DNA of 64,000 nucleotides from Nitrospirota bacterium (GCA_963845245.1 CAWJRJ010000014.1:79134-143133); one strand, 5' to 3'. Numbered from the stretch's first letter, positions 1,858 to 58,722 are shown. Notes: generated from the sequence alone by a model not told the origin. Program-made: numbers and translations.

Positions 1858-1946
1858 CTTTGCGAAAGCCCCTATGCCTGCTATCATAACCGATTGATTT
1901 TCGGTGAATTTTGGCTGGGGGACAGGGATTCGAAACCTAAAAAGCC
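1858..1946 (-). repeat. Partial tRNA-Gln 3' end plus similar 3' flank (putative att repeat, distal copy)
   Basis: 1912-1934 (tggctgggggacagggattcgaa) is identical to 14866-14888, the last 23 nt of tRNA-Gln including CCA. 1858-1911 aligns to 14811-14865 at roughly 75 % identity. Similarity is weaker out to about 1946. Confidence 0.8.
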
Positions 1947-2017
1947 AGTTTCACCAAATACCCGATAATCAAGTAAATATCAACACTTACAAACAGTTAA
2001 ACCAGACTACCATCTGG

Positions 2018-2090
2018 ATTCAGTCCGTTAAAGTACGACAAAATACAGCTAAAATTGACATGTATTGCGAAAGTTTTGCGAAAGTCCGGG
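2018..2090. repeat. 73-nt repeat R1, copy A
   Basis: Aligns to 14656-14728 at roughly 85 % identity. Contains TTGCGAAAG twice, 11 bp apart (2065-2073 and 2076-2084). Confidence 0.8.
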
Positions 2091-2288
2091 TGCATATGTG
2101 GCGCATAAAGGTCTAAATGGTTTGTAAATGTTTTTTAGGGTATGGAGGACTATAGGGCGCGAGGATTTCTTCGTTAGTCATTTGAAAGAATAAAAGAATC
2201 ATATGCGGGTTGTCAGTTATGTACTGGGCGCACCTCTTGGCAAGAATTCGAGCGTCATGGTGGTAGGATTAGATTGTTTTAACAGGTA

Positions 2289-2576
2289 TCATCCGCCTTC
2301 AATAGGTCCACCCTCCTCCCAGATGGATTTGCTGGATAAATTTTCAAGAGACGATTTAGTCTGTTCGAGTAGCTCATAGTCCAGGTTCTCCCCTGTCGCT
2401 ATCTTCTCGAATACTGCTTTTGCATATGGGTTTTTGGCGTTCCTGGCCATGTCGGTGAAAATATCGAAATCCTCTCTCTTCATTCCCATCGCTAAGTCCA
2501 AGGCGTCTATGTCCGATGTAGCCGAGTTGGCGAGTCTGGTGTGAACAGCACTCTTCTTTGCTCTTGAGGAGTTCAT
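2289..2576 (-). CDS. Hypothetical protein (95 aa)
   Basis: ORF with GAGGT Shine-Dalgarno about 7 nt upstream of the ATG at 2576. Acidic, helical-looking. No family recognised. Confidence 0.45.
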   Translation of the reverse strand: MNSSRAKKSAVHTRLANSATSDIDALDLAMGMKREDFDIFTDMARNAKNPYAKAVFEKIATGENLDYELLEQTKSSLENLSSKSIWEEGGPIEGG

Positions 2577-2788
2577 GATATTACCTCGCATCGGGTAAGC
2601 TAATCGTTTTTTAACAAACTCTTAATGAAAAAGATACCAAAGCCCACCCAATGTGTCAAGGTAACCAGCCCTCAGTTCCCATGCTCAAACTTGTAAAAAA
2701 GCCGGACCCATGATATCTTTTAAGTGAATCTACTTTTTATTGTTTTTATTTCCAATAAAGTGTTCGGCTCTTCGTCAGAGGTACCTGG

Positions 2789-4549
2789 ATGATTGAGTTC
2801 GAAACTATCAAAAAACCTCTACACTCCTTGGCCATCCGGCCGAATATGTTGAATTACGAGAAAACGTGCGCCGCCTTTTCATGGGAAGATATCCGCCGCG
2901 AACTCAGCGGACCGTCCGCCGGCAAGGGCTTGAACATTGCCCACGAGGCGGTGGACCGGCATGCCCTCGGTCCGCTTCGAGACCGGCTTGCCATCCGCTG
3001 GCTTGGCAGGGACGGCACCGTAAAGGACTTCACTTACGGCGACCTCATGGAGCAGACAAGCCGTTTTGCCAATGTGCTGAGAAATTTGGGAATTAAAAAG
3101 GGCGACATGGTTTTCGTCCTGGCGGGCCGTATCCCGGAGTTATACATCGCTGCGCTTGGCACACTCAAAAACGGGAGCGTCTTCTGTCCGCTTTTCTCGG
3201 CATTCGGCCCAGAGCCTATCTTCCAGCGCCTGACCAAGGGTGAGGCGAAGGTCATTGTAACTACCGAGCGACTATACAAGAAAAACGTCGAAATATTGCG
3301 GGAGCGCCTGCCGCAGCTTAAACATGTCCTCCTGACTGACGTAAAGGAAAACATTGCTGAGGACGTCAGGTCACTCCCTAAAATGATGGCCCAGGCTCCC
3401 GGCGAGTTTGAAATACCGTTTACTGACCCCGAGGACATGGCTGTCCTTCACTTCACCAGCGGCACGACAGGGATGCCTAAAGGCGCGGCACATGTGCATA
3501 ACGCCGTGCTTACCCATTACATGACAGGGAAATATGTGCTGGACTTCCATGACGGAGACATCTTCTGGTGCACTGCGGACCCTGGCTGGGTTACAGGCAC
3601 ATCGTACGGAATCATCGCCCCATTGACGCACGGAGTGACAAGCATCATCGACGAGTCTGATTTTGACGCGGAGCGCTGGTGCCGAATCCTGGAAAAACAG
3701 AAGGTGACCGTCTGGTACACCGCACCCACGGCGATAAGGATGCTTATGCGCACGAATATCGTGCCTTGCCGCGAGTACGATATATGTTGCCTGCGCCTTG
3801 TCCACAGCGTCGGGGAGCCGCTCAACCCGGAAGCCGTTGTATGGGGGGAAAAGGCTCTCGGGATGCCCATACACGATAACTGGTGGCAGACGGAGACCGG
3901 CGGGATAATGATCTCCAACTATGCCTCGATGGAGATACGCCCCGGATCGATGGGCAGGCCCCTTCCTGGCATTGAGGCCGCGATAGTGCGTCGCCTTGAC
4001 GGGGACAGGCTGGAAGTCATTGATACACCCGGCGTCGAGGGCGACCTTGCGCTCAAGCCGGGCTGGCCATCCATGTTCAGGGGATATCTGCACGACGAGG
4101 AACGATACAGGAAATGTTTCGTGGACGGATGGTACATTACGGGGGACCTTGCCAGGAAAGATGCCGACGGCTACTTCTGGTTCGTTGGTCGAGCGGATGA
4201 CATAATCAAGACCTCCGGCCACATGGTGGGGCCTTTTGAGGTGGAAAGCGCGCTGCTCGAACACCCGGCGGTGGCCGAAGCAGGCGTCATAGGAAAGCCT
4301 GACCCTGTGATTGGGGAAATAGTCAAGGCGTTCATAGCCCTCAAGCCCGGCTATGAACCATCCGAAAGTCTGCGGCTGGAACTCATCGGCTTTGGCCGCA
4401 CCAAGCTCGGTTCGGCCGTGGCACCAAAGGAGATAGCGTTTATAGAGAACCTGCCAAGGACCAGAAGTGGCAAGATCATGCGGCGGCTACTCAAAGCACG
4501 CGAGCTTGGGTTGCCGGAAGGCGACATATCAACATTGGAGGCAGGCTGA
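2789..4549 (+). CDS. AMP-forming acetyl/acyl-CoA synthetase (AcsA-like adenylate-forming ligase)
   Basis: 586 aa. Adenylation core motifs [25 protein letters not shown] and a C-terminal SGKIMRR lysine motif. Confidence 0.85.
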
Positions 4550-4553
4550 AACC

Positions 4554-5552
4554 ATGCCGGAACCCAAAATTTCAGCGATGAAGCTCGAAAGAGAACAAGG
4601 CCTTCGCCTGCTCAAAATGATGGTGCTTATCAGGCGGTTCGAGGATAAGTCGGCCGAGCTTTATACCGCTACGAAAATACGCGGCTTCATGCACCTGTAT
4701 AACGGCGAGGAGGCCGTGGCCGTGGGGGTTATGGAGTCCCTGAGGCCCGAGGACGCCGTTGTGGCCACCTACCGCGAGCACGGACAGGCCCTGGCTCGGG
4801 GCGTTAGCGCTGGCTCCATTATGGCCGAGATGTACGGCAAGCTGGAGGGCTGTTGCCGGGGCCGCGGCGGTTCCATGCACATATTTGACGCCAATACGCG
4901 GTTCTATGGCGGGAATGCGATCGTCGGAGGAGGTCTCCCGGTCGCGGTGGGGCTGGCCCTTGCGGACAGGATGCAGGGTAGGCAGTTGGTAACGTGCTGC
5001 TTTTTCGGCGATGGCGGGGCTGCGGAGGGCGCGTTCCATGAGTCAATGAACCTGGCTGCTCTCTGGAAACTCCCGGTCTTCTTTGTCTGCGAGAACAATC
5101 TTTACGCAATGGGTACCAGGATAAATTTTGCCCATGCCGTCACGGACCTTGCCAGAAAAGCATGTTCCTACGACATCGCCTCGGCTTCTGTGGACGGTAT
5201 GGATGTACTCGCCGTGGAGTCTGCGGCAAAAGAGGCGGCAGAATTTGTGAGGTCCGGGGAAGGCCCTTATTTCCTGGAATGCCGCACGTACCGGTTCAGA
5301 GCGCATTCTATGTTCGACGCGGAACTTTACAGGACCAAAGAGGAAGTCGAGGAATGGAAGAAGCGCGACCCCATTGAAGGCCTGGCCATCCGGATGAGGG
5401 CGCAGGGGCTCCTCGAAGATTCCGACATGGAACAGATCGAACGGGAGGTGACCGACATAGTTGACAGGTCCGTGGCATTTGCGGAGTCTGGAACATTGGA
5501 GCCTGTGGAGGAACTGACACGTTTCGTTTACTCTGACCGGAGACCAGCATGA
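4554..5552 (+). CDS. 2-oxoacid (pyruvate/acetoin-type) dehydrogenase E1 alpha subunit, TPP-dependent
   Basis: TPP motif [31 protein letters not shown]. The ATG at 4554 was chosen because the track start at 4467 overlaps the ligase gene. Confidence 0.9.
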
Positions 5553-6538
5553 ACGGCGGGGATACAGTCAAGATTACGTACCGTGAGGCCATGCGCGAGG
5601 CTATCCGGGAGGCGATGCAAAAGGACAGCCGCGTGTTCCTGATGGGCGAGGATGTCGGCCGCTACGGCGGGTGCTTCGCAGTGAGCAAGGGCCTGATGGG
5701 GGAGTTCGGCCCCGAGCGCATAAGGGATACCCCGTTATCGGAAAACGGTTTTGTCGGCGCGGGAATCGGCGCTGCAATGGGGGGTATGCGCCCGATAGTA
5801 GAGGTAATGACTGTCAACTTCAGCCTGCTGGCCCTGGACCAGATACTGAACAACGCCGCCACGTTCCTCCACATGTCGGGTGGCCTCTTCAACGTACCGC
5901 TCGTCATACGCATGGCGACCGGGGCGGGCAGGCAGCTGGCTGCTCAGCATGCGCACTCCCTTGAAGGCTGGTACGCACATATCCCAGGTATAAAGATCGT
6001 TACCCCCGCTACACTGGAAGACGCGCGCGGCATGCTTTGGACGGCTCTCGAGGACCCGGACCCTGTTATCATATTCGAGAACAACACCCTCTACAACATG
6101 GAAGGTGAGCTTCCTGTGGACGCCGGCCCGGTCGATATCGACCATGCCCGTATCATCCGGCCGGGGCGCGACGTTACAGTCATCACATATGGCGCGAGCC
6201 TTTTCAAGGCGCTTGATGCGGCAGAAACCCTCTCTAAAGACGGGATCGAGGCAGAGGTTATAGACCTTCGCACGCTCAGGCCGCTTGACGATGATACATA
6301 TCTGTCTTCAATATCCCGGACCCACCGCGCCGTAATCGTGGACGAGGGTTGGCGCACCGGCAGTATCTCGGCAGAGATAAGCGCGCGCATCATGGAGAAG
6401 GCATTTTACGAACTGGATGCCCCTGTCGAGAGAATATGCAGCGCCGAGGTCCCGATGCCTTATGCAAAACACATGGAACAGGCAGCACTTCCCCAGGTTG
6501 AGACGATAGTCGCCACTATAAAGAGGATGGTGCATTAA
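5549..6538 (+). CDS. 2-oxoacid dehydrogenase E1 beta subunit
   Basis: 329 aa with transketolase-like pyrimidine-binding and C-terminal domains. ATGA overlap with the E1 alpha stop. Confidence 0.9.
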
Positions 6539-7729
6539 ATGGGTGAGTTCAGGATGCCCAGCCTTGGGGCGGACATGGATAAAGGCGCGCTGTCCGTCTG
6601 GCTTGTTGAGCCGGGAGACCCCGTCAAGCACGGTCAGGTCATCGCCGAGGTGGAAACAGACAAAGGGATCATTGGCATAGAGGTATACGAAGACGGCGTT
6701 GTGGAGCGGCTAATAGTGGAACCGGGCACGGAAGTCCCTGTCGGTGAGGTTCTTGCGATGATACGCTCTGAAGGCGCCCAGACAAAATCTACGGCAACTG
6801 AGGCTCCGCCGCCTCCAACTGGCCCTGTAATTGAAGAAAAGGCGGTTCATGAAGTCAGGCAGCCAGGTCCTTCGGTTGGGCGCATTAAAATATCGCCCGC
6901 CGCCCGCAAAAAGGCTGAGGAGCTTGGGATAGACGCCAGTACGATGAAGGGTACGGGACAGGAAGGTAGCTTAACCCTTGCCGATGTCGAGCGAGCGGCA
7001 AAGGAGCAGGGGATGGCAAGGGAAGAGTCGACGCCTGAGGCTGTTAAACCTTCCGCGGGACTGGACATGGCCGCGATGAGGAGGGCTATCGCGGCCGCGA
7101 TGGCACGCTCCAACCGCGAGATACCACACTACTACCTTGAAACAGAGATAGACATGAGCCGCGCACTCAAGTGGCTCGAGGCGGAGAATTTAAAACGCCC
7201 GGTAAAGGATCGCATACTGCCGGTAGCTCAGTTGCTGAAGGCCGTGGCGCTTGCCCTGAAGGAAGTGCCGGAGCTGAACGGCTACTGGCTTGACGACCGA
7301 AACCAGCCCTTGGAGTCCATACATGTCGGGTTTGCGATCTCCATAAAGAAGGGCGGTTTGTTTGTGCCGGCAATCCACGATGTTGACAAAAAGGGCCTGG
7401 GGGAGTTGATGGAGGCGATGGGCGACCTTATTACGCGGACACGTGCCGGGAGGCTTCGGGGGTCTGAACTTACCGATGCAACGATTACTTTCACGAGTCT
7501 GGGAGACCTTGGCGTGGAAGCCGTTTACGGAGTTATCTACCCGCCACAGGTCGCGCTTGTCGGCTTCGGCAGGATAACCGAACGTCCCTGGGCGGAAAAC
7601 GGCATGCTCGGGGTACGACCTGCGGTTACCGTGACACTCTCGGGCGACCACAGGGCCACTGATGGGATCGTTGGAGCGCGCTTTCTGGACACACTAAACC
7701 GCTACATGCAGGAACCGGATAAATTATGA
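6539..7729 (+). CDS. Dihydrolipoamide acyltransferase E2
   Basis: Lipoyl domain with EVETDKG, Ala/Pro linker, peripheral-subunit-binding domain ([15 protein letters not shown]) and catalytic domain with the DHRATDG motif. Confidence 0.9.
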
Positions 7730-8004
7730 CTACACTGGAGATCAAAAACACTATTTTCAAAATCCTGGGACAAATTGCGCCTGAGTCTGATTTCGACAAA
7801 CTCTTGCCGGAAGAAAACCTGCGCGAGGCCCTGGATATAGATTCCTTCGATTTTCTGAATGTGGTTATCGGGATCAGCAAGGAGTTGGGAGTTGATATCC
7901 CTGAATCAGACTATGGTAAAATCGGCTCACTTGCAGATATGATCAGCTACCTGTCAGAGAGAATCGGCCAAACACATAAAGTGATGTTGCTTCATATTCA
8001 ATAA
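7726..8004 (+). CDS. Acyl carrier protein-like protein
   Basis: 92 aa, acidic, with [12 protein letters not shown] (DSx phosphopantetheine-serine context). Start overlaps the E2 stop (ATGA). Confidence 0.7.
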
Positions 8005-8032
8005 CGGGGTCTATGCATTCCGGAGGTGCACC

Positions 8033-8179
8033 ATGCAAAAATACGTAAGGTGGGGGTTGGGATTAGCGGCCGGTATGGTGGCGGGTATCGCCGTTTATAA
8101 GTTCATGAACCGGGAGCAGGGAGAGACCTTTGCAGCCACGCCACCATTTGCGGAAGCGGCCGAAAGCAGTGAAAATTAA
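8033..8179 (+). CDS. Small single-TM protein (48 aa), not in the ORF track
   Basis: GGAGGTG Shine-Dalgarno 5 nt before the ATG. Sequence MQKYVRWGLGLAAGMVAGIAVYKF... includes one hydrophobic helix. Confidence 0.35.
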   Translation: MQKYVRWGLGLAAGMVAGIAVYKFMNREQGETFAATPPFAEAAESSEN

Positions 8180-8354
8180 CAAAAATCGCAAGGGCGGATT
8201 TCTGGATTACAAATAACTATTACAGGTCAGGAGGCATAAATGGCCAGAGTCACCCTGAGCGTCATAAAAGCCGCACGCGTCCGATTGAGGCAGCTATTTT
8301 CCTAACGGACAGACCTGATGCCTGCATACATCACCGCCAAGACAGACTAGGTAA

Positions 8355-10177
<1,823 letters not shown>

Positions 10178-10183
10178 GCCGCT

Positions 10184-10465
10184 ATGCGCAGGAAAGACTT
10201 CCTGGCTTCAGTGAACAAGGAGTCGCGGCGGATTGAGGCATCCCGGGATGACAGGAAAGGGCTTTGGCATTATGTGGTGACCGCCACGTCCATAGGGTGG
10301 GTCCTCGTGTTGCCCGCCCTCGGTGGCGTATACCTGGGCAGGTGGCTCGACCGATTGTCTGGGAAGAGCGGCTTCTGGACCTTAAGCCTGATGCTAGTTG
10401 GGTTAGTGGCCGGGATATTCTGGGTGTGGTACACGAACTTCCGCAACGGTGGGGACAAGGTATGA
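10184..10465 (+). CDS. atpQ: AtpQ (ATPase_gene1 / AtpI-like small membrane subunit of N-ATPase operons)
   Basis: 93 aa with 2 TM helices and the motif LPALGGVYLGRWLDRL. Sits between epsilon and subunit a. Confidence 0.7.
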   Translation: MRRKDFLASVNKESRRIEASRDDRKGLWHYVVTATSIGWVLVLPALGGVYLGRWLDRLSGKSGFWTLSLMLVGLVAGIFWVWYTNFRNGGDKV

Positions 10466-11145
10466 AACAGATCGCGCCGGAGATAATTTTTTCGGTGGGT
10501 CCGGTCGGAATCACTGACTCGGTGGTTATTACCTGGTGCGGGATGGCCGTTGCGATTGCGCTTGGATATGTCGCCGGGAGGAGGCTGACCCTTTATCCGC
10601 GCAAGTGGCAGAACTTGCTCGAGGCCGCAGTCGATGCCGTGAACTCCGCAATCGAGGAGGTCATGGAAAGGGACCCGTGGCCTTTTATGCCGGTCATATT
10701 CACCCTTTGGTTTTCAATCGGCGCAGCCAACCTGACCGGAATAGTGCCGGGGCTTATCTCGCCGACGAGGGATATTAGCACCGCCGCAGCGCTCGCAGCG
10801 CTCTCGTTCTTCTCCGTGCATTACTACGGCATCAGGTTCATGGGGCTGCGCAATTACATGAAGCACTACTTCGAGCCGGTGTGGATACTCTTCCCGTTCC
10901 ACATTATCAGCGAGTTATCGAGGACTCTTGCGCTGATGCTCAGGCTGTTCGGGAACATCATAAGCGGGGAGATGGTGGCCGGGGTGCTGCTTATTGTGGC
11001 GGGCTTTCTGGTCCCTGTACCTTTCGCGTTTCTAGAGGTGGTGGTCGCCATACTCCAGGCTTACATATTCGGTATGCTCACGCTGATATTCATAGCGGCC
11101 GGCATAAAAACCATAGAATCCGAGAAAAGAAGGGAGGCATCCTGA
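10462..11145 (+). CDS. atpB: N-type F-ATPase subunit a
   Basis: Essential Arg context [16 protein letters not shown] at 10462 overlaps the atpQ stop. The longer track ORF from 10264 lies inside atpQ. Confidence 0.85.
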
Positions 11146-11146
11146 A

Positions 11147-11413
11147 ATGGACCCCACTACATTGGTGGTTACTGTGTCGATAGCTGCAGCCGCGCTGGCA
11201 ATTGCGCTTGGCGGGTACGGCCCGGCGAGGGCTGAGGGCGAGGCTGTAGCCAAGGCGATGGAAGCAATCGCGAGGCAACCGGAGTCTTCCGGCCAGATAA
11301 TGAGGACGCTTTTCGTTGGCTTGGCGTTTATTGAGGCAATAGCGATATATGCCCTGGTCATCGCCATGGTCATCCTTTTTGCTAACCCATTGCTTGACTA
11401 CTTGAAAAAATGA
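11147..11413 (+). CDS. atpE: N-type F-ATPase subunit c
   Basis: 88-aa hairpin with RQPE loop and carboxylate in helix 2 (FIEAIAIY). Confidence 0.9.
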
Positions 11414-12147
11414 AGCTAAATCTGACGACCTTCATATTTCAGATCATTAACTTCGTACTCCTGGCCTATATCCTCCACCGGGTACTCTACAAACCGATCA
11501 GGGCCATAATGGAAAAGCGCAAGAGACTTGTCATGGAGGACGTGGACCGCGCCCTTCGCATGAAGGAGGACGCGATAACTATAAAGGAGAAGTATGAACG
11601 GTTGACGGGCGAGGCGGAGGTGTTCAGGAAGAAGGAGATGGAAAAAGCTATTGAACATGCGGAAGAGACAAAAAAGTTGATAATGGAGAAGGCGGTTCGA
11701 GAGGCAGAGGCCGAGAAGGAGAAGGCCCGCGCGGTGATAGAGAACGAAAGGATCGAGAAAACGGCCTCGCTGAGGAAGGACGCGGTGGAAATAAGCTCGG
11801 AGCTGGCCGCGCGACTCCTCGTGCCACTTGCGGATGAAACCCTCCACAAGAGGTTGGTAGAGCTGATGCTGCGGGAACTGGAGGAGCGTCCGCCTGCCGC
11901 GCCCGCCTACGACAAAGATGGCGCAAAGGCGTCCGTCGTGTCGGCGTTTCATTTGAACGATCCGGAGTTCCGGAGCATCGAGACTCTTCTGAAGGACTAC
12001 GGCGGGCCTTCGCTTTCAATAGAGTGGAAGGTAGATCCTGAGCTTATCGCAGGCGTTAGGATCTGGCTGGACGGGCTGGTGTTCGACGGATCGCTAAAGG
12101 GGCAGCTTGCAGCTTTCAGGGAGCGCGCCTTGAAAGCGGTTGATTGA
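11410..12147 (+). CDS. atpF: N-type F-ATPase subunit b with delta-like C-terminal extension
   Basis: 245 aa. N-terminal TM helix, long charged coiled coil, and a C-terminus ([26 protein letters not shown]) resembling the delta/OSCP C-terminus. The operon has no separate delta gene. Confidence 0.8.
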
Positions 12148-13693
12148 TATGGAAGACGTAATTGGCAGGTTAAAGGTTGCGGCGGCGGCTACGACCTTGG
12201 GAGTCATCAGGCAGTACGAGGGAGTCGTGCTCTCGGTAGGGGACGGCATCGCCGCAATCAGCGGACTTCAAGACGCAGGGCTGTACGAGCTTCTGGAGTT
12301 TCCAGGCGGTGTACGGGGTGTAGCGTTCGACTTGGAGCCAAGGGTTATAAATGTAGTGCTCCTTGACTGCGCCGAGGGCGTCGGGACAGGCGACCCCGTA
12401 AGGCTCACGGGCAGGACACTTTCCGTGCCGGTCGGAGAAGGCTTCATAGGCAGGGTTATAAACCCGCTCGGCAGGCCGCTTGACGGGCTTGCGCCTCCCG
12501 ATGTCGCAAACTACTATCCTCTCGAACGAACCGCTCCAGGCATTGTAAAAAGGGATTTCGTCTCCCAGCCGGTTTACACCGGCATCCGCGCTATCGACTC
12601 CATGGTGCCCATAGGCAGGGGGCAGCGCGAACTGGTCGCAGGCGACAGCACCACCGGCAAAACGTCAATCGCACTCGACACCATAATCAACCAGAAGGGC
12701 AAGGACCTGCTCTGCGTCTACGTGGCGATCGGCCAGAAGTCATCCACCACACTGAGGGTCCTGGAACACCTAAGGATGTATGATGCGATGGACCATACGG
12801 TGATGGTATGTGCCGGGGCGGACACGCCGCTCGGCTTGCAGTACATTGCTCCTTATGCGGGCTGCGCAATCGCCGAGTTCTTCTTCGACAAGGGGAAAGA
12901 CGTGCTCGTAGTCTATGATGACCTTACAAGACACGCGGAGGCGTACCGCTCTTTGTCGCTGCTGCTCCGCAGGCCGCCGGGGAGGGAGGCCTACCCCGGA
13001 GACATATTCTTCCTGCACTCCCGCTTGCTTGAACGTTCAGCAAAGCTCGCCAGCCGGTACGGTGGCGCTTCTATAACTGCTATCCCAATTGTAGAGACCC
13101 AGTCCGGCAGGATCTCCAGCTATATCCCGACAAACCTCATATCCATTACCGACGGGCAGATATATCTTGACGCCGAGCTTTTCGACAAGGGTATACTTCC
13201 CGCCATAGACCTCCGCAAATCGGTATCAAGGGTGGGCGGCAAGGCCCAGACGCAGCCGATGCGCGATGTGGCAGCAAGGCTTAAAATCGAGTACGAGCGT
13301 TTCCTTGAGGTCGAGGTCTTCACGAAGTTTGGAGCAAAGCTCGACAAGGAGACGGTCTCCGCGCTGAGACGCGGTGAAAGACTCAGGGAAGTCTTGAAAC
13401 AGGGCAGGTTCATGCCGATGCCGGTAGAGGAGCAGGTATGCGTCTTTTATGCCCACGGGCAGGGCTACCTTGACCAGTTGAAACTGGGAGAGGCCTGGCC
13501 ATTCCTTCAGATATACCTGAGCAAACTGCGCCTCCAGCAGCCCGACCTGCTGGATGACATCAGGCTTGGAATGACGCTTTCCACGAAGATGAAGGCAAGG
13601 CTTGACAAGACGCTCAAAAGGATGACCATTAAAAGGGGGACAGGCGCTGATGATCTCCAGCAGGGAACTGGAACTAAAGACCAAAAGCTATAA
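12140..13693 (+). CDS. atpA: N-type F-ATPase alpha subunit
   Basis: Walker A GDSTTGKTS. 517 aa. Start is either TTG 12140 or ATG 12149. Confidence 0.9.
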   Translation: MIDMEDVIGRLKVAAAATTLGVIRQYEGVVLSVGDGIAAISGLQDAGLYELLEFPGGVRGVAFDLEPRVINVVLLDCAEGVGTGDPVRLTGRTLSVPVGEGFIGRVINPLGRPLDGLAPPDVANYYPLERTAPGIVKRDFVSQPVYTGIRAIDSMVPIGRGQRELVAGDSTTGKTSIALDTIINQKGKDLLCVYVAIGQKSSTTLRVLEHLRMYDAMDHTVMVCAGADTPLGLQYIAPYAGCAIAEFFFDKGKDVLVVYDDLTRHAEAYRSLSLLLRRPPGREAYPGDIFFLHSRLLERSAKLASRYGGASITAIPIVETQSGRISSYIPTNLISITDGQIYLDAELFDKGILPAIDLRKSVSRVGGKAQTQPMRDVAARLKIEYERFLEVEVFTKFGAKLDKETVSALRRGERLREVLKQGRFMPMPVEEQVCVFYAHGQGYLDQLKLGEAWPFLQIYLSKLRLQQPDLLDDIRLGMTLSTKMKARLDKTLKRMTIKRGTGADDLQQGTGTKDQKL

Positions 13694-14517
13694 GTCCATC
13701 CTCGGGATAGTGAAGGCGATGAAGGCCCTTTCAGCGGCCAACGTGCGGAAGGGATCGTCTACGCTCGGGTATACACGCCGTTACAGGGAGTTCATAGATT
13801 CGTCTGTCTCGCTTGCCGCAACATTTCCGGGCGTAAGCATATCCGTCCTAGGCAGGAGGAAGCTCCTTGTGGCGTTCGGTTCGCAGTACGGGCTGTGCGG
13901 CGCGTTCAACGAACGGGTGCTTGAGGCTAGTGGCTGAGGCCGAGGAAGAGCTCGGTGAAGTGGTCGGGCTCGTGCTGGTGGGGAGGCGTTTTGCGGACCT
14001 TGCCCTGGACGCTTACAAGGACGTGCCTGGAAAACCTGTGGAGGTTGTCGAGGCGCCCGGTTCCGTGGAGGGCCTTGCGGAAACCATTAACGTACTTTTG
14101 GAGACCCTTTACATAAAATACAAAAACGACGATTTCGACGAAATGTACTTTGTTTTCCCTAGTTTTGTAAACGACGCCCTTTTGCTCCAGAGGAAGGTTG
14201 CCCTGCCTCCGCAGTTTACACGTCAAGAGGACGGCACCGAACCCCCGCTTCTTTATATACCTCCTTCCGAGGTGGTTGAAGGGCTAGTGGAGGAATACCT
14301 CTATGTGAACCTTTTTTCAACCGCACTTGAGACAGTGATAGCCGAGAACGAAAGCCGCATGAGGAGTATGGACTACGCACAGCGAAGCATAAAGAAAAAG
14401 GTGGAGGAGCTTGCATCCTCTTACAACTATGCCCTGCAGGAGGAAATAACGGGCGAGCTTTTGGAGATAATAGGCGGGTACGAGGCATTAAGAGAAGCCG
14501 GGCACAGCGGGGGTTGA
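13650..14517 (+). pseudogene. atpG: N-type F-ATPase gamma subunit, reading frame broken near 13925-13935
   Basis: The N-terminal 95 aa (to ...GLCGAFNERVLEASG*) and the C-terminal part (LVAEAEEELGEVVGLVLVGRR...) lie in different frames. One extra nucleotide around gaggct-a-gtggct restores continuity. Confidence 0.7.
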
Positions 14518-14655
14518 AAATTATCAATTTCTAAATGTTTAATTATCAGGGCAGGCTTGAGACGTTGTTCCTTGCGATGCCTTTTTCTGGGTATACAATG
14601 ACCGCCTAAAAAGGTTTTGAGGATGACGGATTCGCTTAAAATAGCGTCTGTCTAC

Positions 14656-14728
14656 ATTCAGTCCGCTAAAGTACGTCAAAATTCAGTTAAAATCGACATG
14701 TATTGCGAAAGATTTGCGAAAGTCTGGG
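14656..14728. repeat. 73-nt repeat R1, copy B
   Basis: Aligns to 2018-2090. TTGCGAAAG occurs at 14703-14711 and 14714-14722 (11-bp phasing). Confidence 0.8.
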
Positions 14729-14810
14729 GGAGATCAATAGCAATATTTAGATTTTCATCGGGTATAGAGTGGGGCTCTCAATGAGAGGATCAAGGTTTTT
14801 CGCCTGTGCT

Positions 14811-14865
14811 GTTGCGAAAGCCCCTTGACCCTCTGTTGTAACCGATTGATTTTTCAGTGTAGATT
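14811..14865. repeat. tRNA-Gln 3'-flank repeat R2, copy B
   Basis: Aligns to 1858-1911. Contains a third TTGCGAAAG (14812-14820), matching 1860-1868. Confidence 0.7.
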
Positions 14866-14939
14866 TGGCTGGGGGACAGGGATTCGAACCCCAGTAAGCA
14901 GATTCAGAGACTGCTGTCCTACCACTAGACGATCCCCCA
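14866..14939 (-). tRNA. tRNA-Gln (anticodon CUG)
   Basis: Hand-folded 74-nt cloverleaf: acceptor UGGGGGA/UCCCCCA, G73, encoded CCA, D stem GUCU/GGAC, anticodon loop CUCUGAA, T arm UGGGG-UUCGAAU-CCCUG. Confidence 0.9.
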
Positions 14940-14992
14940 ATATGAGAACGCTATAATAGCCAAATACAAAGAGGCTGTCAAGCGTGTTTTTA

Positions 14993-16420
14993 CTAGGCCT
15001 TGATGCCTGAAACGGCCTTTTTCAGCCGCGCGAGGCTCCTGTCCCTGCCGAGAATCAACAGCACGTCGTATATGCCGGGGCTCACCGTGCCGCCCGTGAG
15101 GGCCACGCGCACCGGCTGGGCCACCTTGCCCATCTTCAGTCCGGTCTCCTCCATCACCCCGTGGAAGACCTTCTCCAACGCCTCGTGGGTGAACTCCGCA
15201 GCCTCGATCTGGTCTATCAGCTTCTCCAGCACCGGCTTTATCTCGGGTGTGAGGAACTTCTCAGCGGATTTAGGGTCGAGTTCCACTCCCTCGCCGAAGA
15301 AGTACGTCGAAGACTCCACCAGCTCCACGAGGGTGTAGCTCTTCTCCCTCTGCGCAAGGACCAGCTTTACCAGCCAGCCCATGTCGGGCCGCTCGGTTAT
15401 GAGGCCCGCCTGCTCAAGCAGAGGCACAATAAGCTCCGCTATCTCCATAGGCTCCCTCTGGTTTATCCAGTGGTGGTTTATCCACTTGAGCTTGTCCGGG
15501 TTGAATACGGCGGCGGACGAGGATATGTTGTCCAGAGTGAAATGCTCCACCATCTCCTGCATCGAGAATATCTCCTGGTCCCCGTGCGACCAGCCCATGC
15601 GGACGAGGTAGTTCACCATGGCCTCGGGCAGATAGCCCATGGTCTTATACTCCATTATGGAGGTGGCGCCGTGCCGCTTACTAAGGCGCGCCTTGTCCGG
15701 CCCGAGTATCATGGAGAGGTGGCCGAACTCGGGCGTGGCATAGCCCAGCGCCTCGTACATCTGGATCTGGCGCGGCGTGTTGTTCAAGTGGTCGTCCCCG
15801 CGCAGCACGTGCGTTATCCCCATAGTGGCGTCGTCCACCACCACGACGAAGTTGTACGTCGGGTAGCCGTCCGTGCGCATTATTATCAGGTCGTCCATCA
15901 CCGAGTTGTCGAAGGTGACAGTGCCCTTTATCAGGTCGTTGACGACCGTCTTGCCATCATCGCTTGACTTGAACCGTATGACGGCTGTCCTCCCCTCCGG
16001 CGCGTGGTCTAAGCCCAGGCATTTCCTGTCATACTTCGGCGGACGCCCGGCGGCCATGGCCTCCTTCCTCCGCTCTTCTAATTCTTCCGGAGTGCAGTAG
16101 CATTTGTAGGCGCGGCCTGAGGCCAGGAGCTTCTCGACGTGTTCCCTGTAAATATCCAGTCGCTCGGTTTGTCTGTATGGCCCGTGCGGGCCGCCCACGC
16201 CGGGGCCCTCGTCGTAGTCCATGCCGCACCACTCCATGCCGTCGAGGATAGCCTTTATCGACTCGTCGGTGGAGCGGGTCTGGTCGGTGTCCTCTATCCT
16301 GAGGATAAACGTGCCCTTGTAGTGCCGTGCATAAAGCCAGTTGAAAAGCGCCGTCCTGACGCCGCCTATATGTAGGTATCCTGTAGGCGATGGGGCGAAG
16401 CGTACACGTACGTTGCTCAT
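14993..16420 (-). CDS. gltX: Glutamyl-tRNA synthetase
   Basis: RFAPSPTGYLHIGG (HIGH motif) and RLSKRHG (KMSKS-like motif). 475 aa. GGAGG Shine-Dalgarno. Confidence 0.95.
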   Translation of the reverse strand: MSNVRVRFAPSPTGYLHIGGVRTALFNWLYARHYKGTFILRIEDTDQTRSTDESIKAILDGMEWCGMDYDEGPGVGGPHGPYRQTERLDIYREHVEKLLASGRAYKCYCTPEELEERRKEAMAAGRPPKYDRKCLGLDHAPEGRTAVIRFKSSDDGKTVVNDLIKGTVTFDNSVMDDLIIMRTDGYPTYNFVVVVDDATMGITHVLRGDDHLNNTPRQIQMYEALGYATPEFGHLSMILGPDKARLSKRHGATSIMEYKTMGYLPEAMVNYLVRMGWSHGDQEIFSMQEMVEHFTLDNISSSAAVFNPDKLKWINHHWINQREPMEIAELIVPLLEQAGLITERPDMGWLVKLVLAQREKSYTLVELVESSTYFFGEGVELDPKSAEKFLTPEIKPVLEKLIDQIEAAEFTHEALEKVFHGVMEETGLKMGKVAQPVRVALTGGTVSPGIYDVLLILGRDRSLARLKKAVSGIKA

Positions 16421-28672: not shown

Positions 28673-29071
28673 TTGATAAATAGAAAAAGAGTAACAGGTT
28701 TTCTGTTCGGCGGCATCATACTATCCTCGTTGCTGGTCGTGATTTTGCCTCGCTTTGTTTTTCCGGTCTGCGAGTCGCCGATGCACTGCTATTACAGTTA
28801 TATGGCCGAGCTGGCATTGTCAGCCGTAGCCGTTTCGTCCTCACTTGCCGCCATTTTTTCGAAAGGACTTGAGGCGCCGAGGATGCTATCAATACCAGTG
28901 TTTGTCTGCGGCATTTTCGCAATCGCGTTTCCTTCCTTTCTGATAGGGGTTTGCGCCAGTCCGGAGATGGCCTGCCATTATGGTGACCTCCCTGTCTGGA
29001 ACCTGTCAGGCGGACTGATGGTTCTGTTGTCACTTGCGGTATTTCTGATCTCAAAGGAGGAGGCCGATTGA
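28673..29071 (+). CDS. DUF4418-like 4-TM membrane protein with Cys/Met/His motifs
   Basis: 132 aa with four hydrophobic helices and motifs PVCESPMHCYY and GVCASPEMACHYG. TTG start. Stop overlaps the permease start. Confidence 0.6.
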   Translation: MINRKRVTGFLFGGIILSSLLVVILPRFVFPVCESPMHCYYSYMAELALSAVAVSSSLAAIFSKGLEAPRMLSIPVFVCGIFAIAFPSFLIGVCASPEMACHYGDLPVWNLSGGLMVLLSLAVFLISKEEAD

Positions 29072-30270
29072 GGAAGCTCGGGCTTTTTTACCTTGCTACA
29101 AGCAATATTAAACGAAAATTATTCAGGACCATCTCGATAGTCCTGTCCGTCGCCGTTGTGGCCGGTACGCTCTTTTCGGCTACGATGGTCATATACAGCG
29201 TCAAGAGGAGCATAAACATAGGTACGGAGCGGCTCGGGGCCGACATACTCGTGGTGCCTGCCTCGGCCGAGCAGCAGGCGCGTACAGCGCTTATTTCAGG
29301 AGAGCCTGGTACATACTACATGGACCGTTCTGTGCTGGACAAGGTCAGGCAGGTAGAGGGCGTGGAGAAGGCTACCCCGCAGGTTTTTATCGAGTCGTCG
29401 TCTTTTTCGTGCTGTTACGTCGGCAATGTGCTTCTCATCGGATTCGACCCGGCAACCGACTTCTCCGTCACCTCCTGGCTTTCTGATTTCTCCGGCAAGT
29501 TCGGCTCGGACGACATAATAGCCGGACGTGAAATACCGACATTAAAGGGCAGGACACTGACATTTTACGGCCACCCGTTCAAGGTCGTCGGAACTCTTGC
29601 CCCGACCGGGATGCATTACCTGGACAACTCAGCATTTATAACAATGGATTCCGCCTACCTTATGGCGGCGGAGTCAAGCAAGAAGGCCAAGAAGACCATC
29701 CAGGTTACGCCTAACCAGATTTCCACCGTACTGGTGAAGGTGAAGGAAGGTTTCACTCCCCAGAGGGTCGCGGTAAAGATAAACTATGCGGTCGACGGGG
29801 TAAAGGCCATCGCATCGAGTGAGGTGATCTCCACCGTAAAGGAGCAGCTCTCGACGCTTTTCACCTACCTCTTCACGATAGGCGGGATAGTATGGGTTAT
29901 GGCGCTCCTCCTTATAGCCGTGGTCTTTTCCATGATAGTCAACGAGAGGCAGCGTGAGATAGGGCTGCTGCGGGCGATGGGCGCTACCAAGGGCTACATG
30001 TTCCGCCTGCTCGTCACCGAGGCCTGCATCCTTACCACGGCCGGAGGGGTTACAGGTGTGAGTCTAGGGGCGATAATCGTGTACAGTTTCAAAAACCTTA
30101 TAGTAAAGGAACTGAACGTGCCCTACCTCTGGCCTTCGGCCTCTTTCACAGCGATGCTTATGGCAGGGTGCGTTGCCGTATCTTTGATCACAGGCGTCAT
30201 TGCGGCCCTCTACCCTGCATCGTTGTCCGCAAGGATGGAGCCGTACAGCGCCATCAGGAAAGGGGAGTGA
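29068..30270 (+). CDS. FtsX-family (MacB-like) ABC transporter permease
   Basis: 400 aa. TM1, a periplasmic domain of about 230 aa, and a C-terminal FtsX bundle (VNERQREIGLLRAMGAT). Confidence 0.85.
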   Translation: MRKLGLFYLATSNIKRKLFRTISIVLSVAVVAGTLFSATMVIYSVKRSINIGTERLGADILVVPASAEQQARTALISGEPGTYYMDRSVLDKVRQVEGVEKATPQVFIESSSFSCCYVGNVLLIGFDPATDFSVTSWLSDFSGKFGSDDIIAGREIPTLKGRTLTFYGHPFKVVGTLAPTGMHYLDNSAFITMDSAYLMAAESSKKAKKTIQVTPNQISTVLVKVKEGFTPQRVAVKINYAVDGVKAIASSEVISTVKEQLSTLFTYLFTIGGIVWVMALLLIAVVFSMIVNERQREIGLLRAMGATKGYMFRLLVTEACILTTAGGVTGVSLGAIIVYSFKNLIVKELNVPYLWPSASFTAMLMAGCVAVSLITGVIAALYPASLSARMEPYSAIRKGE

Positions 30271-55592: not shown

Positions 55593-56018
55593 ATGAGGAC
55601 ATGCGCAAAATGCAAGAAAAGGGAATATTGCTCAAAGGTCTGTGATTATATCGAGAAATACCTGCCATCCGAATATTCCGGTAAAAACCCATATCACGAA
55701 ATTAACTTAAGCCCTGAAGGACTCGATGCAGTGTCGGATCGGGCCTCAATAGCCGGCTGGAGCCGTTTTGAGAGATTGGGCCTAAGAAGGGAGCTTGACC
55801 TTTCCCTCCTGACACCTAAAGAAAAAACGGCGCTGACATTTATCGCATCTGGTATGCCGCAGAGCGAGGCGGCAAGGCGTTTGAAAATTACCCGCTCTTC
55901 ACTGCGAAGCCGCATCAATAAAGCACGGAAGAGGCTATCGGCCACCCAAAACTTATATCTTATGGAAGGGCAAAACAAGGGCGTTAGGCAAAACGAAGAG
56001 GGGTGCGCCAATGGATAA
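55593..56018 (+). CDS. Zn-finger plus HTH (sigma-70 region-4/LuxR-like) DNA-binding protein; possible small terminase or regulator
   Basis: CAKCKKREYCSKVC at the N-terminus. LTPKEKTALTFIASGMPQSEAARRLKITRSSLRSRINKARKRL at the C-terminus. Confidence 0.55.
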   Translation: MRTCAKCKKREYCSKVCDYIEKYLPSEYSGKNPYHEINLSPEGLDAVSDRASIAGWSRFERLGLRRELDLSLLTPKEKTALTFIASGMPQSEAARRLKITRSSLRSRINKARKRLSATQNLYLMEGQNKGVRQNEEGCANG

Positions 56019-56229
56019 TGTTTCATGCCGCCGATGCGGCAACACTGCCATGCTGAAAAGTTTCATAAGCGTCCGCTGTCCCATATGCGGTGAATACAAG
56101 TTTATGGAAAAGGCCGGGGACGATCTGCTATGGTCCGAACACAGGCTGGGGCTTTTGTTCCAGAAGGGTGGCTGGCAATTTCTCGGCGTAAACTCGCCGC
56201 CGTCATGGTTTATCGAAAACATCGTATAG
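56011..56229 (+). CDS. Small zinc-ribbon protein
   Basis: CRRCGN...CPICGE ribbon. Overlaps the neighbouring genes in the operon. Confidence 0.45.
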   Translation: MDNVSCRRCGNTAMLKSFISVRCPICGEYKFMEKAGDDLLWSEHRLGLLFQKGGWQFLGVNSPPSWFIENIV

Positions 56230-56244
56230 GTTCCGGAGGGCAAC

Positions 56245-56514
56245 ATGGCTCAGAGAATATTGAATGATAAAGTCAACGTCCGCCACCTGAGGGGCTTTAG
56301 AAAAATCCAGCAGGAGGTACTGAGGGCGCTAAAGGCCGGCGTGTCTCCTAAGGAGTACAGGTCGGTTGCCGCCGCATACAAAGAGGCGGTGTCAGGCGAG
56401 AGGATGGTGCTTGGCATGGAAGGTACAGGACAGTCCGGGTGGCCGGACGAGATGGTGGTCCGGTGGGTGGACGAAGAAGACGAAGCCGGGGAGAACGCCG
56501 AAGATGCTTCGTGA
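56245..56514 (+). CDS. Hypothetical phage protein (possible small terminase subunit)
   Basis: 89 aa with an acidic tail. Lies immediately upstream of TerL and overlaps it. Confidence 0.4.
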   Translation: MAQRILNDKVNVRHLRGFRKIQQEVLRALKAGVSPKEYRSVAAAYKEAVSGERMVLGMEGTGQSGWPDEMVVRWVDEEDEAGENAEDAS

Positions 56515-57784
56515 GGTCGGCATCGCCTACAAGAAGCTCCCTTCTCAGCGCAGGTTCCACAGCTCCAGGGCAAAGTTCAAGGCATATGTCGGTGGCTATG
56601 GTTCCGGAAAGACATACGCTGGCTGCCACGAAGCGCTGAAGCTATCGCTTTTGAACCGTGGTCTGACCGGCATGATGCTGGCGCCGACATACGGGATGCT
56701 GGAGGATTCAACGCTGCCAGCGTTTATGGAGATACTTGACAGGGCAGGGCTAAAGTATAAGTTCCGGACGTCCGAAGGCCGGATGATCCTCCCTTGGGGC
56801 TCGAAGGTATTGTTCCGTTCCGCGGACAACCCTGCGAGGCTTAAAGGGCCGAACCTGGCCTGGGTCGGGATAGACGAGGGCGCTCTGATATCGAGGGCCG
56901 CGTGGGAGGTGGCTATATCGCGCATAAGGCACCCGGAGGCAAAGAAGCTCGCCGCATTCATCACCACGACGCCGGAGGGTTTCAACTGGCTGTATGAGGA
57001 GTTTGTGGAGAAGGGCAGGCGTCGAGGGTACCAGGTCATATATGCCCGCACCAGCGAGAATACATACCTGCCTGATGAATACGTGCAGGACCTTGAAGCG
57101 GCCTACGACCCCACGCTTGTCAGGCAGTACCTTATGGGTGAGTTTACAAATCCCGCCTCGGGCCGTGTCTATCACTCCTTTGACAGGGCCGTGCATGTCA
57201 GGCCGGGAATTACATATGACCCGGCAAGGCCGGTGTCCCTGGCAATAGATTTCAACGTCGACCCGTTGCACGCAGCAGTCATCCAGACGGAAAAAGGCAC
57301 CGTGCTGGTTGTTGACGAGATTGTCCTGCCATCCTCAAACACTTATGAGCTTTGCAGGGAGACGAGGGAACGGTTCGGTGACGGGCATATAACAGCATAT
57401 CCCGACCCGACAGGCCGTGCGAGAAAGACGGCAGGCTCATCGGATGCGCCTTCGGACTTCGCAATACTCATGTCGCACGGGTTCGAGGTAAGGTCACACA
57501 GGTCTTCACCGGCCATAAGGGACAGGGTTAACGCGGTGAACAGGAAGCTACTGGGTGCCGAAGGGCAGGCGGGTCTGCTCATTAACGAACGCTGCCGAGA
57601 GACTATTCGCTCCTTCGAACAGACATGCTTCAAGCCCGGCAGCTCGATAATCGACAAGGCCGCAAGCATGGAGCACATGACCGACGCCATAGGCTACTTC
57701 ATCGAATACGAGTATCCTATCCGACCGCCGGTGCTGGTCGAATATCAGGGGCTTGGCCGTCGAAGTCATAACAAGGGTTTTTAG
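56504..57784 (+). CDS. Terminase large subunit
   Basis: Walker A GGYGSGKT, Walker B AWVGIDEG, and a C-terminal nuclease-like region. ATG at 56504. Confidence 0.85.
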   Translation: MLREVGIAYKKLPSQRRFHSSRAKFKAYVGGYGSGKTYAGCHEALKLSLLNRGLTGMMLAPTYGMLEDSTLPAFMEILDRAGLKYKFRTSEGRMILPWGSKVLFRSADNPARLKGPNLAWVGIDEGALISRAAWEVAISRIRHPEAKKLAAFITTTPEGFNWLYEEFVEKGRRRGYQVIYARTSENTYLPDEYVQDLEAAYDPTLVRQYLMGEFTNPASGRVYHSFDRAVHVRPGITYDPARPVSLAIDFNVDPLHAAVIQTEKGTVLVVDEIVLPSSNTYELCRETRERFGDGHITAYPDPTGRARKTAGSSDAPSDFAILMSHGFEVRSHRSSPAIRDRVNAVNRKLLGAEGQAGLLINERCRETIRSFEQTCFKPGSSIIDKAASMEHMTDAIGYFIEYEYPIRPPVLVEYQGLGRRSHNKGF

Positions 57785-57810
57785 TAATTTTCAGCAATGG
57801 AGGAGGTCAT

Positions 57811-58722
57811 ATGACGGAACTGTCGGAGAGGTTGTGCTTTACACTCGACAACGAGCTTGTAGACATACCGGAATTTGTGCAGGTGTTGCCTGCCGGTGAG
57901 GTGAAGCCCAGGGGGAAGACGAACTTCCTCGTGGACGAGGAGTCGCGCGGCCTACTTATGTCCGCGTTCGCCGGGAGCAGCAATGATCTGGTAATCGACT
58001 ACGAGCACCAGAGCCTTTCGGGCTCGGAGGCCCCGGCCGCGGGCTGGATAAAGGATGTCGAGGACAGGGGCGCGGACGGCGTCTGGGCGAAGGTCCAGTG
58101 GACGGAGAGGGCGAAGGAATATCTTGCAAAACGCGAGTACCGCTACCTTTCGCCCGTGGTGCTCATACGGAAGAAAGACGGCAGGGCGGTTGAGCTGTTG
58201 GGCGCGGGGCTTACAAACCTGCCCGCCATCGACGGCATGACGCCGGTTGTAAACACAAGCCGGCCGGGCTTGGGGGAGGAGGTGAATGAGATGGAAGAGG
58301 ATTACAAACAGCTCTATCTGAACGTGCTTGGGTTGTTCGGCCTACCGGATGATTCCGGGTTTGAAGAGGTCAAGGCGAAGGTAGATTCTATCGCAACGCC
58401 CAAGGGTTTCGTTGCGGAAGAGGAATACGTAGCTCTCAAAGAGACTTTAAAGATGCGCGAGACGGACATGCTCATAAAGGAAGCGCTTTCAAACGGCAGG
58501 CTCACCCCATCACTCACGGGCTGGGCGAAAGCATACGCCACGAAGGACATGGATGGTTTCAGGGATTTCATCGGCCGTGCGATGCCGGTTGTGCCACTTG
58601 GAATCAGCGATCTAAGGCATGCCGCACCGCTTGAACACACGCAGACCCAGGTGAACAGGCTTCTCGGCATAACCGATGAGTCGTTCATCCGCTTTTCCGA
58701 TATGGCCGTACAGACGAGGTGA
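57811..58722 (+). CDS. Mu gpI-like prohead protease/scaffold
   Basis: LVIDYEHQSL...APAAGWIKDVEDRGADGVWAKVQWTERAKEYLAKREYRYLSPVV matches the Mu-like prophage I protein family as I recall it. Confidence 0.7.
   Translation: MTELSERLCFTLDNELVDIPEFVQVLPAGEVKPRGKTNFLVDEESRGLLMSAFAGSSNDLVIDYEHQSLSGSEAPAAGWIKDVEDRGADGVWAKVQWTERAKEYLAKREYRYLSPVVLIRKKDGRAVELLGAGLTNLPAIDGMTPVVNTSRPGLGEEVNEMEEDYKQLYLNVLGLFGLPDDSGFEEVKAKVDSIATPKGFVAEEEYVALKETLKMRETDMLIKEALSNGRLTPSLTGWAKAYATKDMDGFRDFIGRAMPVVPLGISDLRHAAPLEHTQTQVNRLLGITDESFIRFSDMAVQTR

Follow-up and report, generated by a model that had tools for sequence, protein, structure and literature searches.

A candidate 12.9-kb genomic island behind the tRNA-Gln(CUG) gene of a Nitrospirota bacterium, with a displaced tRNA 3' end and a recurring arm module

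Analysis of a stretch of 64,000 nucleotides (nt) from a Nitrospirota bacterium (GCA_963845245.1, CAWJRJ010000014.1:79134-143133; hereafter the window, from whose first letter all positions are counted) identified an interval, 1935-14865, that is read with moderate confidence as a genomic island which entered at the tRNA-Gln(CUG) gene through a single reciprocal crossover. The interval lies between the intact tRNA gene and an exact copy of that gene's last 23 nt, and its ends carry further direct repeats, part of which recur behind the tRNA-Gln genes of other insert-bearing Nitrospirota loci. Its cargo consists of a gene cluster for an acyl carrier protein-linked dehydrogenase (module A) and an operon resembling those of the N-ATPases (module B). 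Coordinates of all features are given in Table 1.

The tRNA gene, which an earlier note on this DNA had placed on the minus strand, was recovered there by both ARAGORN and Rfam. On the plus strand its 3' end (14866-14888) reads TGGCTGGGGGACAGGGATTCGAA, and a repeat search returned the second copy of this core in the same orientation, as the note had claimed, with 12,954 nt separating the two. By our estimate the chance expectation for an identical pair of 23-mers in 64 kb is approximately 3e-5, and the pair with its neighbouring repeats is among the longest repeats that the search found in the window. On the side of the tRNA body, similarity was found to end with the core. The next 60 nt align at the level of shuffled sequence, the alignment score being reached by 1492 of 2000 shuffles, and a longer partial copy extending to the anticodon loop (approximately 42 nt) was ruled out by this test. 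The spacer between gltX and the tRNA gene is nearly invariant, with contigs from metagenomes X13 and X1 showing 99-100% identity over 14864-14991.

Complete decay on one side of a sharp edge, with none on the other, would have to be assumed if the fragment at 1912-1934 were the relic of a tandemly duplicated tRNA-Gln gene and the 12.9 kb in between ordinary chromosome. The direct orientation of the copies and the similar trailer behind both are what such a duplication would leave. However, the remaining 50 nt of the tRNA body show no trace of it, in relatives described below the fragment lies between island DNA and a native terminator, and in no relative examined were two tRNA-Gln genes found at this site. 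This explanation, which the earlier note had itself raised as a challenge to its own proposal, is very improbable and is regarded as effectively refuted.

Beyond the 3' end of the tRNA the similarity was found to continue, as the earlier note had reported. Local alignment of 1841-1911 with 14791-14865 gave a score of 49, compared with a maximum of 28 in 2000 shuffles. The segments directly 3' of the displaced fragment and of the intact gene, termed arms D3 and D3' respectively, are approximately 80% identical (81% in the ungapped alignment of 1860-1901 with 14812-14853), and each contains a 12-nt box A, 19 nt of spacer and a box B. Box A (AATCAATCGGTT) occurs exactly twice in the window, once in each arm. 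A second pair of repeats, Y and Y', overlooked in the earlier note along with the two-box module, was identified at the inner side of the island ends; these share 88% identity over 78 nt, a score reached by none of 2000 shuffles. The 9-mer TTGCGAAAG is present six times in the window against an expectation of 0.63, and all six copies are confined to the four repeats, with one in each of D3 and D3' and two in each of Y and Y'. Neither the arms nor the long 5' leader that precedes the ligase gene of module A matched an Rfam family, and Y did not score as a sigma-70 promoter. Box A was also considered as an RNA or DNA hairpin (ACCGA...TCGGT); by eye, the left arm of this hairpin varies without compensation while the 12-mer is invariant, and box A is therefore treated as a sequence box and not as a structure.

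All of these elements are in direct orientation, in the order D3-core-Y at the left end and Y'-D3'-core/tRNA at the right end. Such an order is not producible by tandem duplication, and it is the one expected from recombination, through the core, between a chromosomal D3-core-tRNA and a circle with the arrangement Y'-D3'-core-(78 nt)-Y. In the proposed mechanism, a circular element bearing the 23-bp segment would have undergone a Campbell-type crossover within the last 23 bp of tRNA-Gln, from the T-loop to the CCA. The incoming DNA would have supplied a new tRNA 3' end together with its own trailer (D3' and Y'), and the original 3' end would have been displaced by 12.95 kb to its present position at 1912-1934. 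In the circularised form the core would be flanked on both sides by repeated short boxes, a layout that would correspond to an attP with arm-type sites for a tyrosine integrase. The recombinase itself would either have been lost or act in trans from elsewhere in the genome.

Comparison with other Nitrospirota showed that the site is variable. A scan anchored on gltX, using one genome per species, returned metagenome-assembled genomes (MAGs; loci denoted L) at 71-83% protein identity. The order NIF3 / tRNA-Met / gltX / tRNA-Gln is kept in all of these relatives, and the DNA directly 3' of tRNA-Gln differs. In L002 the tRNA gene is followed by a plain terminator and then by a convergent thioredoxin-like gene, rubrerythrin, purD and purH; L001, L004 and L082 likewise have plain terminators, followed by other genes. 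Loci L005 and L030 carry an insert of approximately 2.4 kb with LuxR/LuxI genes ahead of the same backbone as L002. A different insert of 3.6 kb was identified in L012 (1641-5276), encoding cell-envelope functions (DUF2846, PEGA, YkuD L,D-transpeptidase and M15 peptidase) and ending in a 25-nt copy of the tRNA-Gln 3' end (23 of 25 positions identical) directly before the terminator of the thioredoxin-like gene. The L012 insert is a second, independent island with the same type of scar at the same position of the tRNA. None of the macB gene that flanks the window's island, the dehydrogenase cluster and the ATPase operon is present in these MAG loci, and none of their backbone genes is present in the window.

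The insert-bearing loci share the arm module with the window. Box A-N19-box B (AATCAATCGGTT-N19-CTTTCGCA) was found with the same 19-nt spacing after the intact tRNA, after the displaced fragment and in L005, L012 and L030, where CTTTCGCA is present once or twice, the copies being 11 nt apart. Behind tRNA-Gln it occurs in insert-bearing loci only (these three, and twice in the window), and it is missing from genomes in which a plain terminator follows. The arm module accompanies both sequence types of the tRNA-Gln gene, GGTTCGAATCC in the window and GGTTCGAGTCC in L005, L012 and L030, and is absent from the nearest neighbours within each type, which indicates that it travels with the inserts and not with the lineage. 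The flank similarity of approximately 55 nt in the earlier note is thus real but not peculiar to one event, being instead a conserved module restricted to insert-bearing genomes.

Some further features of these loci were recorded. LuxR/LuxI pairs lie directly behind the tRNA-Gln gene and arm module in L005 (11811-14180) and L030 (11813-15698), with no displaced tRNA fragment detectable in either. Locus L030 possesses two LuxR genes and a RadC-like gene, and between its LuxR genes (12813-12950) there are approximately six tandem copies of a 23-nt unit, TTGACAAATGATATAAGCTATAT, which may represent repeated promoter or lux-box-like sites. Loci L012 and L030 are two different gltX/tRNA-Gln loci from a single MAG (MFD00991.bin.2.105), which probably mixes two related strains or species. 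A small ORF (open reading frame) beside the arm in L005, L012 and L030 weakly resembles the 3' end of the thioredoxin-like gene; the resemblance was dropped as it reached only 50-55% in a forced alignment.

Contigs of occupied type and of empty type were also found in metagenomes (denoted X). Exact look-ups of the macB permease and of the ligase of module A in a contig index were without match. The strain of the window was itself in no public run (best share of sampled words 0.12), and several runs contained relatives at 87-98%; that in X1 matches the macB permease at 96%, gltX at 91% and D3' with the 3' part of the tRNA at 90%. Among long contigs from close relatives none spans the site (L081 ends at gltX), and in the closest relatives the tRNA is where contigs tend to end (L003, L004, L081 and X1 record 4), a common behaviour of assemblies at polymorphic or repeated sites. 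Shorter contigs fall into two states. In the first, the fragment with its island DNA abuts a terminator: a 225-nt contig of X1 matches 1912-2037 at 93% and then has the outward flank CCCGAAAAAAAAGGGGCCTTTTCTATTTTA, joined to TGGCTGG, instead of D3, and a 196-nt contig of X18 matches 1908-2070 at 93% with the outward flank AAAGGCCCCGCACTTCGCGGAGCCTCGTTT. Homology to the window stops at, or no more than 4 nt from, the 3' end of the fragment in both, and both outward flanks are terminator hairpins. In the second state, an intact tRNA-Gln with the exact 3' end of the window runs directly into a terminator (X13, X14, X7, X5 and X16). The X13 contig of this type is 99% identical over 14864-14991, spacer included, the flank in X14 reads GCCCCGCAAAAACGGGGCCTTTTGATTTTA, and the terminators of X14 and X13 resemble the X1 flank base for base.

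The occurrence of both attR-type and empty-type contigs in relatives indicates that the boundaries of the island are real, and the geometry of insertion at a tRNA 3' end proposed in the earlier note is upheld. The empty site that it had suggested looking for was encountered in pattern, in the five metagenomes just named and in L002, L082, L001 and L004, but the metagenome contigs are short and of low depth. Furthermore, homology stops sharply at the right edge of Y (2088-2090), which is followed by differing DNA in X5 (two variants), X13, X14 and X16, as would be the case if a conserved end of the island bordered on variable cargo. An apparent joint in X4 from 1934 to 14899 was rejected as an excision product, being a foreign tRNA-Gln that the aligner had split between both copies.

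Several findings weigh against an insertion of this kind. No integrase, excisionase or transposase was identified in 1935-14865 when all ORFs of at least 70 amino acids (aa) were scanned with Pfam and NCBIfam, in agreement with the earlier note, and none appeared in the ORF list of its non-coding ends or, elsewhere in the window, among the larger ORFs that were scanned; nor was an integrase shown in the arm-bearing islands of L005, L012 and L030. Scans of metagenome and viral contigs with the box A-N19-box B pattern gave no match, and hence no free or integrase-bearing member of the family. Foreign composition was not found in the interval either by guanine-plus-cytosine (GC) content, at 0.550 compared with 0.535 for the rest of the window, or by tetranucleotide distance, at 0.0097 within the range of 0.0074-0.0118 of other 12.9-kb segments, so that the comparison of composition suggested in the earlier note did not set the interval apart. 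In relatives, the cargo modules are ordinary chromosomal operons. The repeat reaches approximately 55 nt past the tRNA end; such an extension is not predicted for a simple attP/attB core and would aid homologous recombination equally well. Finally, the attR and empty-site contigs are only 150-260 nt long, of low depth and from unidentified organisms. Searches with the tRNA end plus box A in viral contigs, and with the double box B in viral contigs and the fetched loci, were also without match; no phage or conjugation genes were found in the interval, and a megablast of the whole interval matched no plasmid or phage.

Many of these points could be accommodated by a recombination hot spot without a dedicated recombinase. 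Circular or plasmid-borne DNA from a related strain, carrying a tRNA-Gln 3' end and trailer, would then have entered by a RecA-type single crossover within approximately 78 bp of homology, later rearrangements would have joined the two operons, and the boxes would belong to the trailer or to regulatory sequence at tRNA-Gln. The lack of an integrase in any of the four arm-bearing islands, the run of the repeat into the trailer, the host-like composition and the chromosomal setting of the cargo operons in relatives are all consistent with this, as is the similar divergence of island and backbone in X1 (88-91%). However, two independent islands have their tRNA-side edge at nearly the same T-stem/T-loop position (23 nt in the window, 25 nt in L012), empty sites lack box A-N19-box B in both tRNA groups, so that the module travels with the inserts, and Y is conserved and sharp-edged with varied DNA beyond it in several metagenomes. 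For these three reasons the hot spot is rated below entry by a crossover in the core and is considered unlikely. In addition, 23 identical bp within 78 bp at approximately 85% identity would be a poor substrate for RecA.

The X1 relative differs to about the same degree from the island and from the backbone, and composition likewise matches the backbone, which suggests that the insertion is either old (before the X1 split) or derived from a close relative; the island is probably old. On the same evidence, and given a frameshifted atpG, the missing integrase and an ameliorated composition, it might be held that the island is the ancestral state, with no current mobility, and that the 'empty' sites are secondary deletions between the direct repeats. 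Such an account would still need an insertion to create the repeats, and is thus no true rival as to origin. Moreover, the more distant L002, L082, L001 and L004 have plain terminators followed by other genes, so that the empty state is widespread and probably ancestral, and we consider an ancestral island improbable. An old insertion at tRNA-Gln remains the favoured reading.

The DNA outside the left copy of the core carries a fragment of an ABC ATPase and a MacB-type permease gene. No relative examined has the macB gene in its tRNA-Gln neighbourhood; a metagenome scan with the macB permease returned only relatives at 51% identity or less, which are of no use for locating an empty site. A 151-nt contig from X7 joins the macB terminator to box B of D3. 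Because the D3 module lies beyond the displaced fragment, the macB side may itself be a second inserted unit, a reading that the X7 contig fits, and macB was probably not the original neighbour of the tRNA gene; the layout of 1858-2090 would be that expected of an attP or of the junction of two tandem islands. The macB region is thus possibly the cargo of an adjacent second island, and for a tandem array of two units of the same family the chances are put at even or slightly below. A second gene for a MacB/FtsX-type permease was observed elsewhere in the window (29068-30270).

Module A could be traced independently of the tRNA-Gln site. A search with its ligase returned relatives at 93-96% protein identity. 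At the DNA level, 2280-8165 aligns with L169 and L170 at 88% identity, while the alignment of 2133-7231 with L171, at 91%, extends as far as the L171 contig does; homology starts and stops at gene boundaries. In L169 and L170 the module is situated between RND-efflux/NMO genes and YidB/ComEA-like genes, with no ATPase operon, tRNA or Y near it. In the X1 relative, 6800-8000 was uncovered even at a threshold of 80%, and this relative appears to possess the arms and the ATPase operon but to lack module A. The approximately 700 nt between Y and the ligase gene (2091-2789) are AT-rich (GC approximately 0.46), without an Rfam match and mostly filled by orf100, which is 76% identical to its L169 counterpart.

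The operon of module B, described in the earlier note as an N-ATPase operon, conforms to that type in part. N-ATPase operons are characterised by atpR as a hallmark gene, always accompany a normal F- or A-type ATPase as a second copy, are found at variable loci and generally match the GC content of their host (Dibrova, Galperin and Mulkidjanian 2010, PMC2881411). The gene order of the window, D-C-Q-B-E-F-A-G, is that of the N-ATPases (D-C-Q-R-B-E-F-A-G) except for atpR; it shares with them the atpD-atpC start, atpQ ahead of atpB, the lack of a separate delta gene, a long atpF with a delta-like C-terminus, a variable locus and a host-like GC content. In contrast, atpR (TIGR03165) gave neither an NCBIfam match nor an ORF, and there is no room for it, as the end of atpQ (10465) overlaps the start of atpB (approximately 10462). 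The sodium ligands of the c subunit (ESTxxY and an extra glutamate) are not present, the motif being read by us as IEAIAIY; the c subunit scores 101 bits against TIGR03322, for which the cut-off is 131, and every subunit scores under the NCBIfam cut-off for the alternate F1F0 type. The operon is therefore only N-ATPase-like. No second atp operon was found elsewhere in the window.

The gamma gene of this operon is frameshifted. Removal of one base at 13929, a base missing in the X1 relative, yields an intact gamma subunit of 288 aa, and the split may be either a real pseudogene or an assembly error. In the homologous operon of L086 the gamma gene (10755-11606) is also in two pieces; the contig name (contig_69896) hints at a long-read assembly, and that split may be an indel error rather than biology. 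Relatives of the alpha subunit form a small clade at 95, 93 and 78-70% identity, several of them labelled Nitrospirota, before identity falls below 60%. The homologous operons in L086 (alpha 77%) and L087 (alpha 70%) likewise lack atpR and are located in other contexts without tRNA-Gln. With this shared layout, the operons of the window, L086 and L087 constitute a distinct small clade. In the X1 relative 8482-14216 is covered at approximately 89%.

Taken with the occurrence of module A elsewhere in relatives at 88-91% identity, the position of the related ATPase operons (alpha 70-77%) away from tRNA-Gln shows a mosaic, in which the 12.9 kb comprises at least two modules with separate histories inside one pair of arms. 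A single, coherent transfer vehicle, as envisaged in the earlier note, is therefore not supported, and its further proposal that the island is a vehicle for N-ATPase transfer was not demonstrated, the closest operons being in other contexts and the operon itself non-canonical.

Table 1. Features of the candidate island and its flanks in the 64-kb window
Feature	Position	Strand	Basis
MacB-type ABC permease	567-1781	plus	Pfam
Terminator of macB permease	1806-1830	plus	terminator scan
Arm D3, directly 3' of displaced fragment (box A 1888-1899, box B 1860-1868)	1858-1911	minus	
Displaced tRNA-Gln 3' fragment (putative attR core), 23/23 identical to 14866-14888, direct orientation	1912-1934	minus	repeat search
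Island-internal arm beside displaced fragment (putative P' side), approximately 93% conserved in X1, X18 and X20 contigs	1935-2012		
Repeat Y (two TTGCGAAAG boxes 11 nt apart, 2065-2073 and 2076-2084)	2013-2090	plus	
Cargo module A, whole	2133/2280-8179	plus	Pfam and DNA alignment to relatives
orf100, 100 aa, no family match	2289-2591	minus	
Acetate-CoA-ligase-like AMP-binding enzyme	2789-4549	plus	Pfam
E1 alpha (longest ORF starts at 4467)	~4554-5552	plus	Pfam
E1 beta	5549-6538	plus	Pfam
E2 acyltransferase	6539-7729	plus	Pfam
Acyl carrier protein	7726-8004	plus	Pfam
48-aa ORF, no family match	8033-8179	plus	
Cargo module B, N-ATPase-like operon	8382-14517	plus	Pfam, NCBIfam
atpD	8382-9794	plus	
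atpC	9791-10177	plus	
atpQ (PF09527)	10184-10465	plus	
atpB	~10462-11145	plus	
atpE	11147-11413	plus	
atpF, b/delta fusion, 245 aa (ATP-synt_B and OSCP C-terminal match)	11410-12147	plus	
atpA	12140-13693	plus	
atpG, frameshifted near 13929, two overlapping ORFs	13650-14517	plus	
Repeat Y', direct orientation to Y, 83 nt from D3' (two TTGCGAAAG boxes, 14703-14711 and 14714-14722)	14651-14728	plus	
Arm D3', directly 3' of intact tRNA-Gln (box A AATCAATCGGTT 14840-14851, 19 nt, box B CTTTCGCAA 14812-14820)	14810-14865	minus	
Repeat core, last 23 nt of tRNA-Gln, T-loop to CCA	14866-14888	minus	sequence
tRNA-Gln(CUG), intact, CCA encoded (putative regenerated target gene, attL side)	14866-14939	minus	ARAGORN (ctg), Rfam tRNA 55.9 bits
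Promoter-like site TTGACA-17-TATTAT in gltX-tRNA spacer, upstream of tRNA-Gln	14953-14981	minus	11/12 matches
gltX, conserved backbone gene upstream of tRNA-Gln	14993-16420	minus	

At the far end of the window, a Mu-like phage head module was observed at approximately 55600-64000, encoding a large terminase (56366-57784), the Mu protease gpI (57811-58722), a Mu portal (58719-59810) and the major head protein gpT (60178-61149). It begins directly after a host gene for an MFS transporter, no transposase was seen to its left, and the GC content at 62-64 kb is 0.46.

If the insertion at tRNA-Gln is correct, it would record exactly, to the nucleotide, how a second ATPase operon came to be inserted in the genome of an uncultured Nitrospirota lineage, and the DNA directly 3' of tRNA-Gln would serve in this clade as a slot for the swapping of unrelated operons. 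The island alone does not explain the patchy distribution of N-ATPases, since the closest operons are in other contexts and the operon of the window is non-canonical and possibly broken. The arm module without an integrase could point to cargo islands mobilised in trans, which standard finders miss because they require an integrase gene. In a wider and speculative view, to which we give little credence, there would be a family of small, integrase-less Nitrospirota cargo islands, marked by box A-N19-box B, Y and the core, lying in tandem at tRNA-Gln and served by an integrase in trans, that shuttle operons between related lineages. It is equally doubtful whether the ATPase operon, the dehydrogenase cluster, the LuxR/LuxI pairs and the cell-wall enzymes would all be cargo of that family, exchanged at a cassette-like site.

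The attP of phage lambda consists of a core flanked by arm-type repeats to which the integrase binds. When the ends of the island are joined conceptually, the layout would be similar, with a 9-bp box directly repeated to either side of the core, within approximately 200 bp and partly at a spacing of 11 bp (one helical turn). This likeness is one of layout, no binding protein being encoded here, and the conservation spans 78 bp, which is more than a binding site needs. An integrase-less island of E. coli (PMC5426353) is comparable in being small, in having short direct repeats and in lacking a site-specific recombinase of its own; that case differs in being reported as a RecA-independent deletion, and is not known to have a tRNA target or conserved arm module.

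The closest known counterparts are the tRNA-gene islands catalogued by Islander (Hudson, Lau and Williams 2015, PMC4383910). A regenerated tRNA gene with a displaced 3' fragment is the accepted mark of islands integrated by tyrosine integrases, among which the class with attP in the T-stem is the commonest (PMC4383910). The island of the window shares with them the regenerated tRNA, the fragment in direct orientation at the far end, a crossover between T-loop and CCA, the location of all inserted DNA 3' of the gene, different islands at one site across strains and, if the macB side is indeed a second unit, a tandem array. It differs in its lack of a tyrosine integrase, of which Islander requires a gene within the island (PMC4383910), and of an excisionase, phage genes or conjugation genes; in a repeat that runs into a conserved trailer module; and in its small size, host-like composition and cargo of metabolic and bioenergetic operons only. 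The feature is thus a fairly ordinary, degenerate tRNA-gene island of a well-known kind, in which the recurring arm module without an integrase is the only unusual element.

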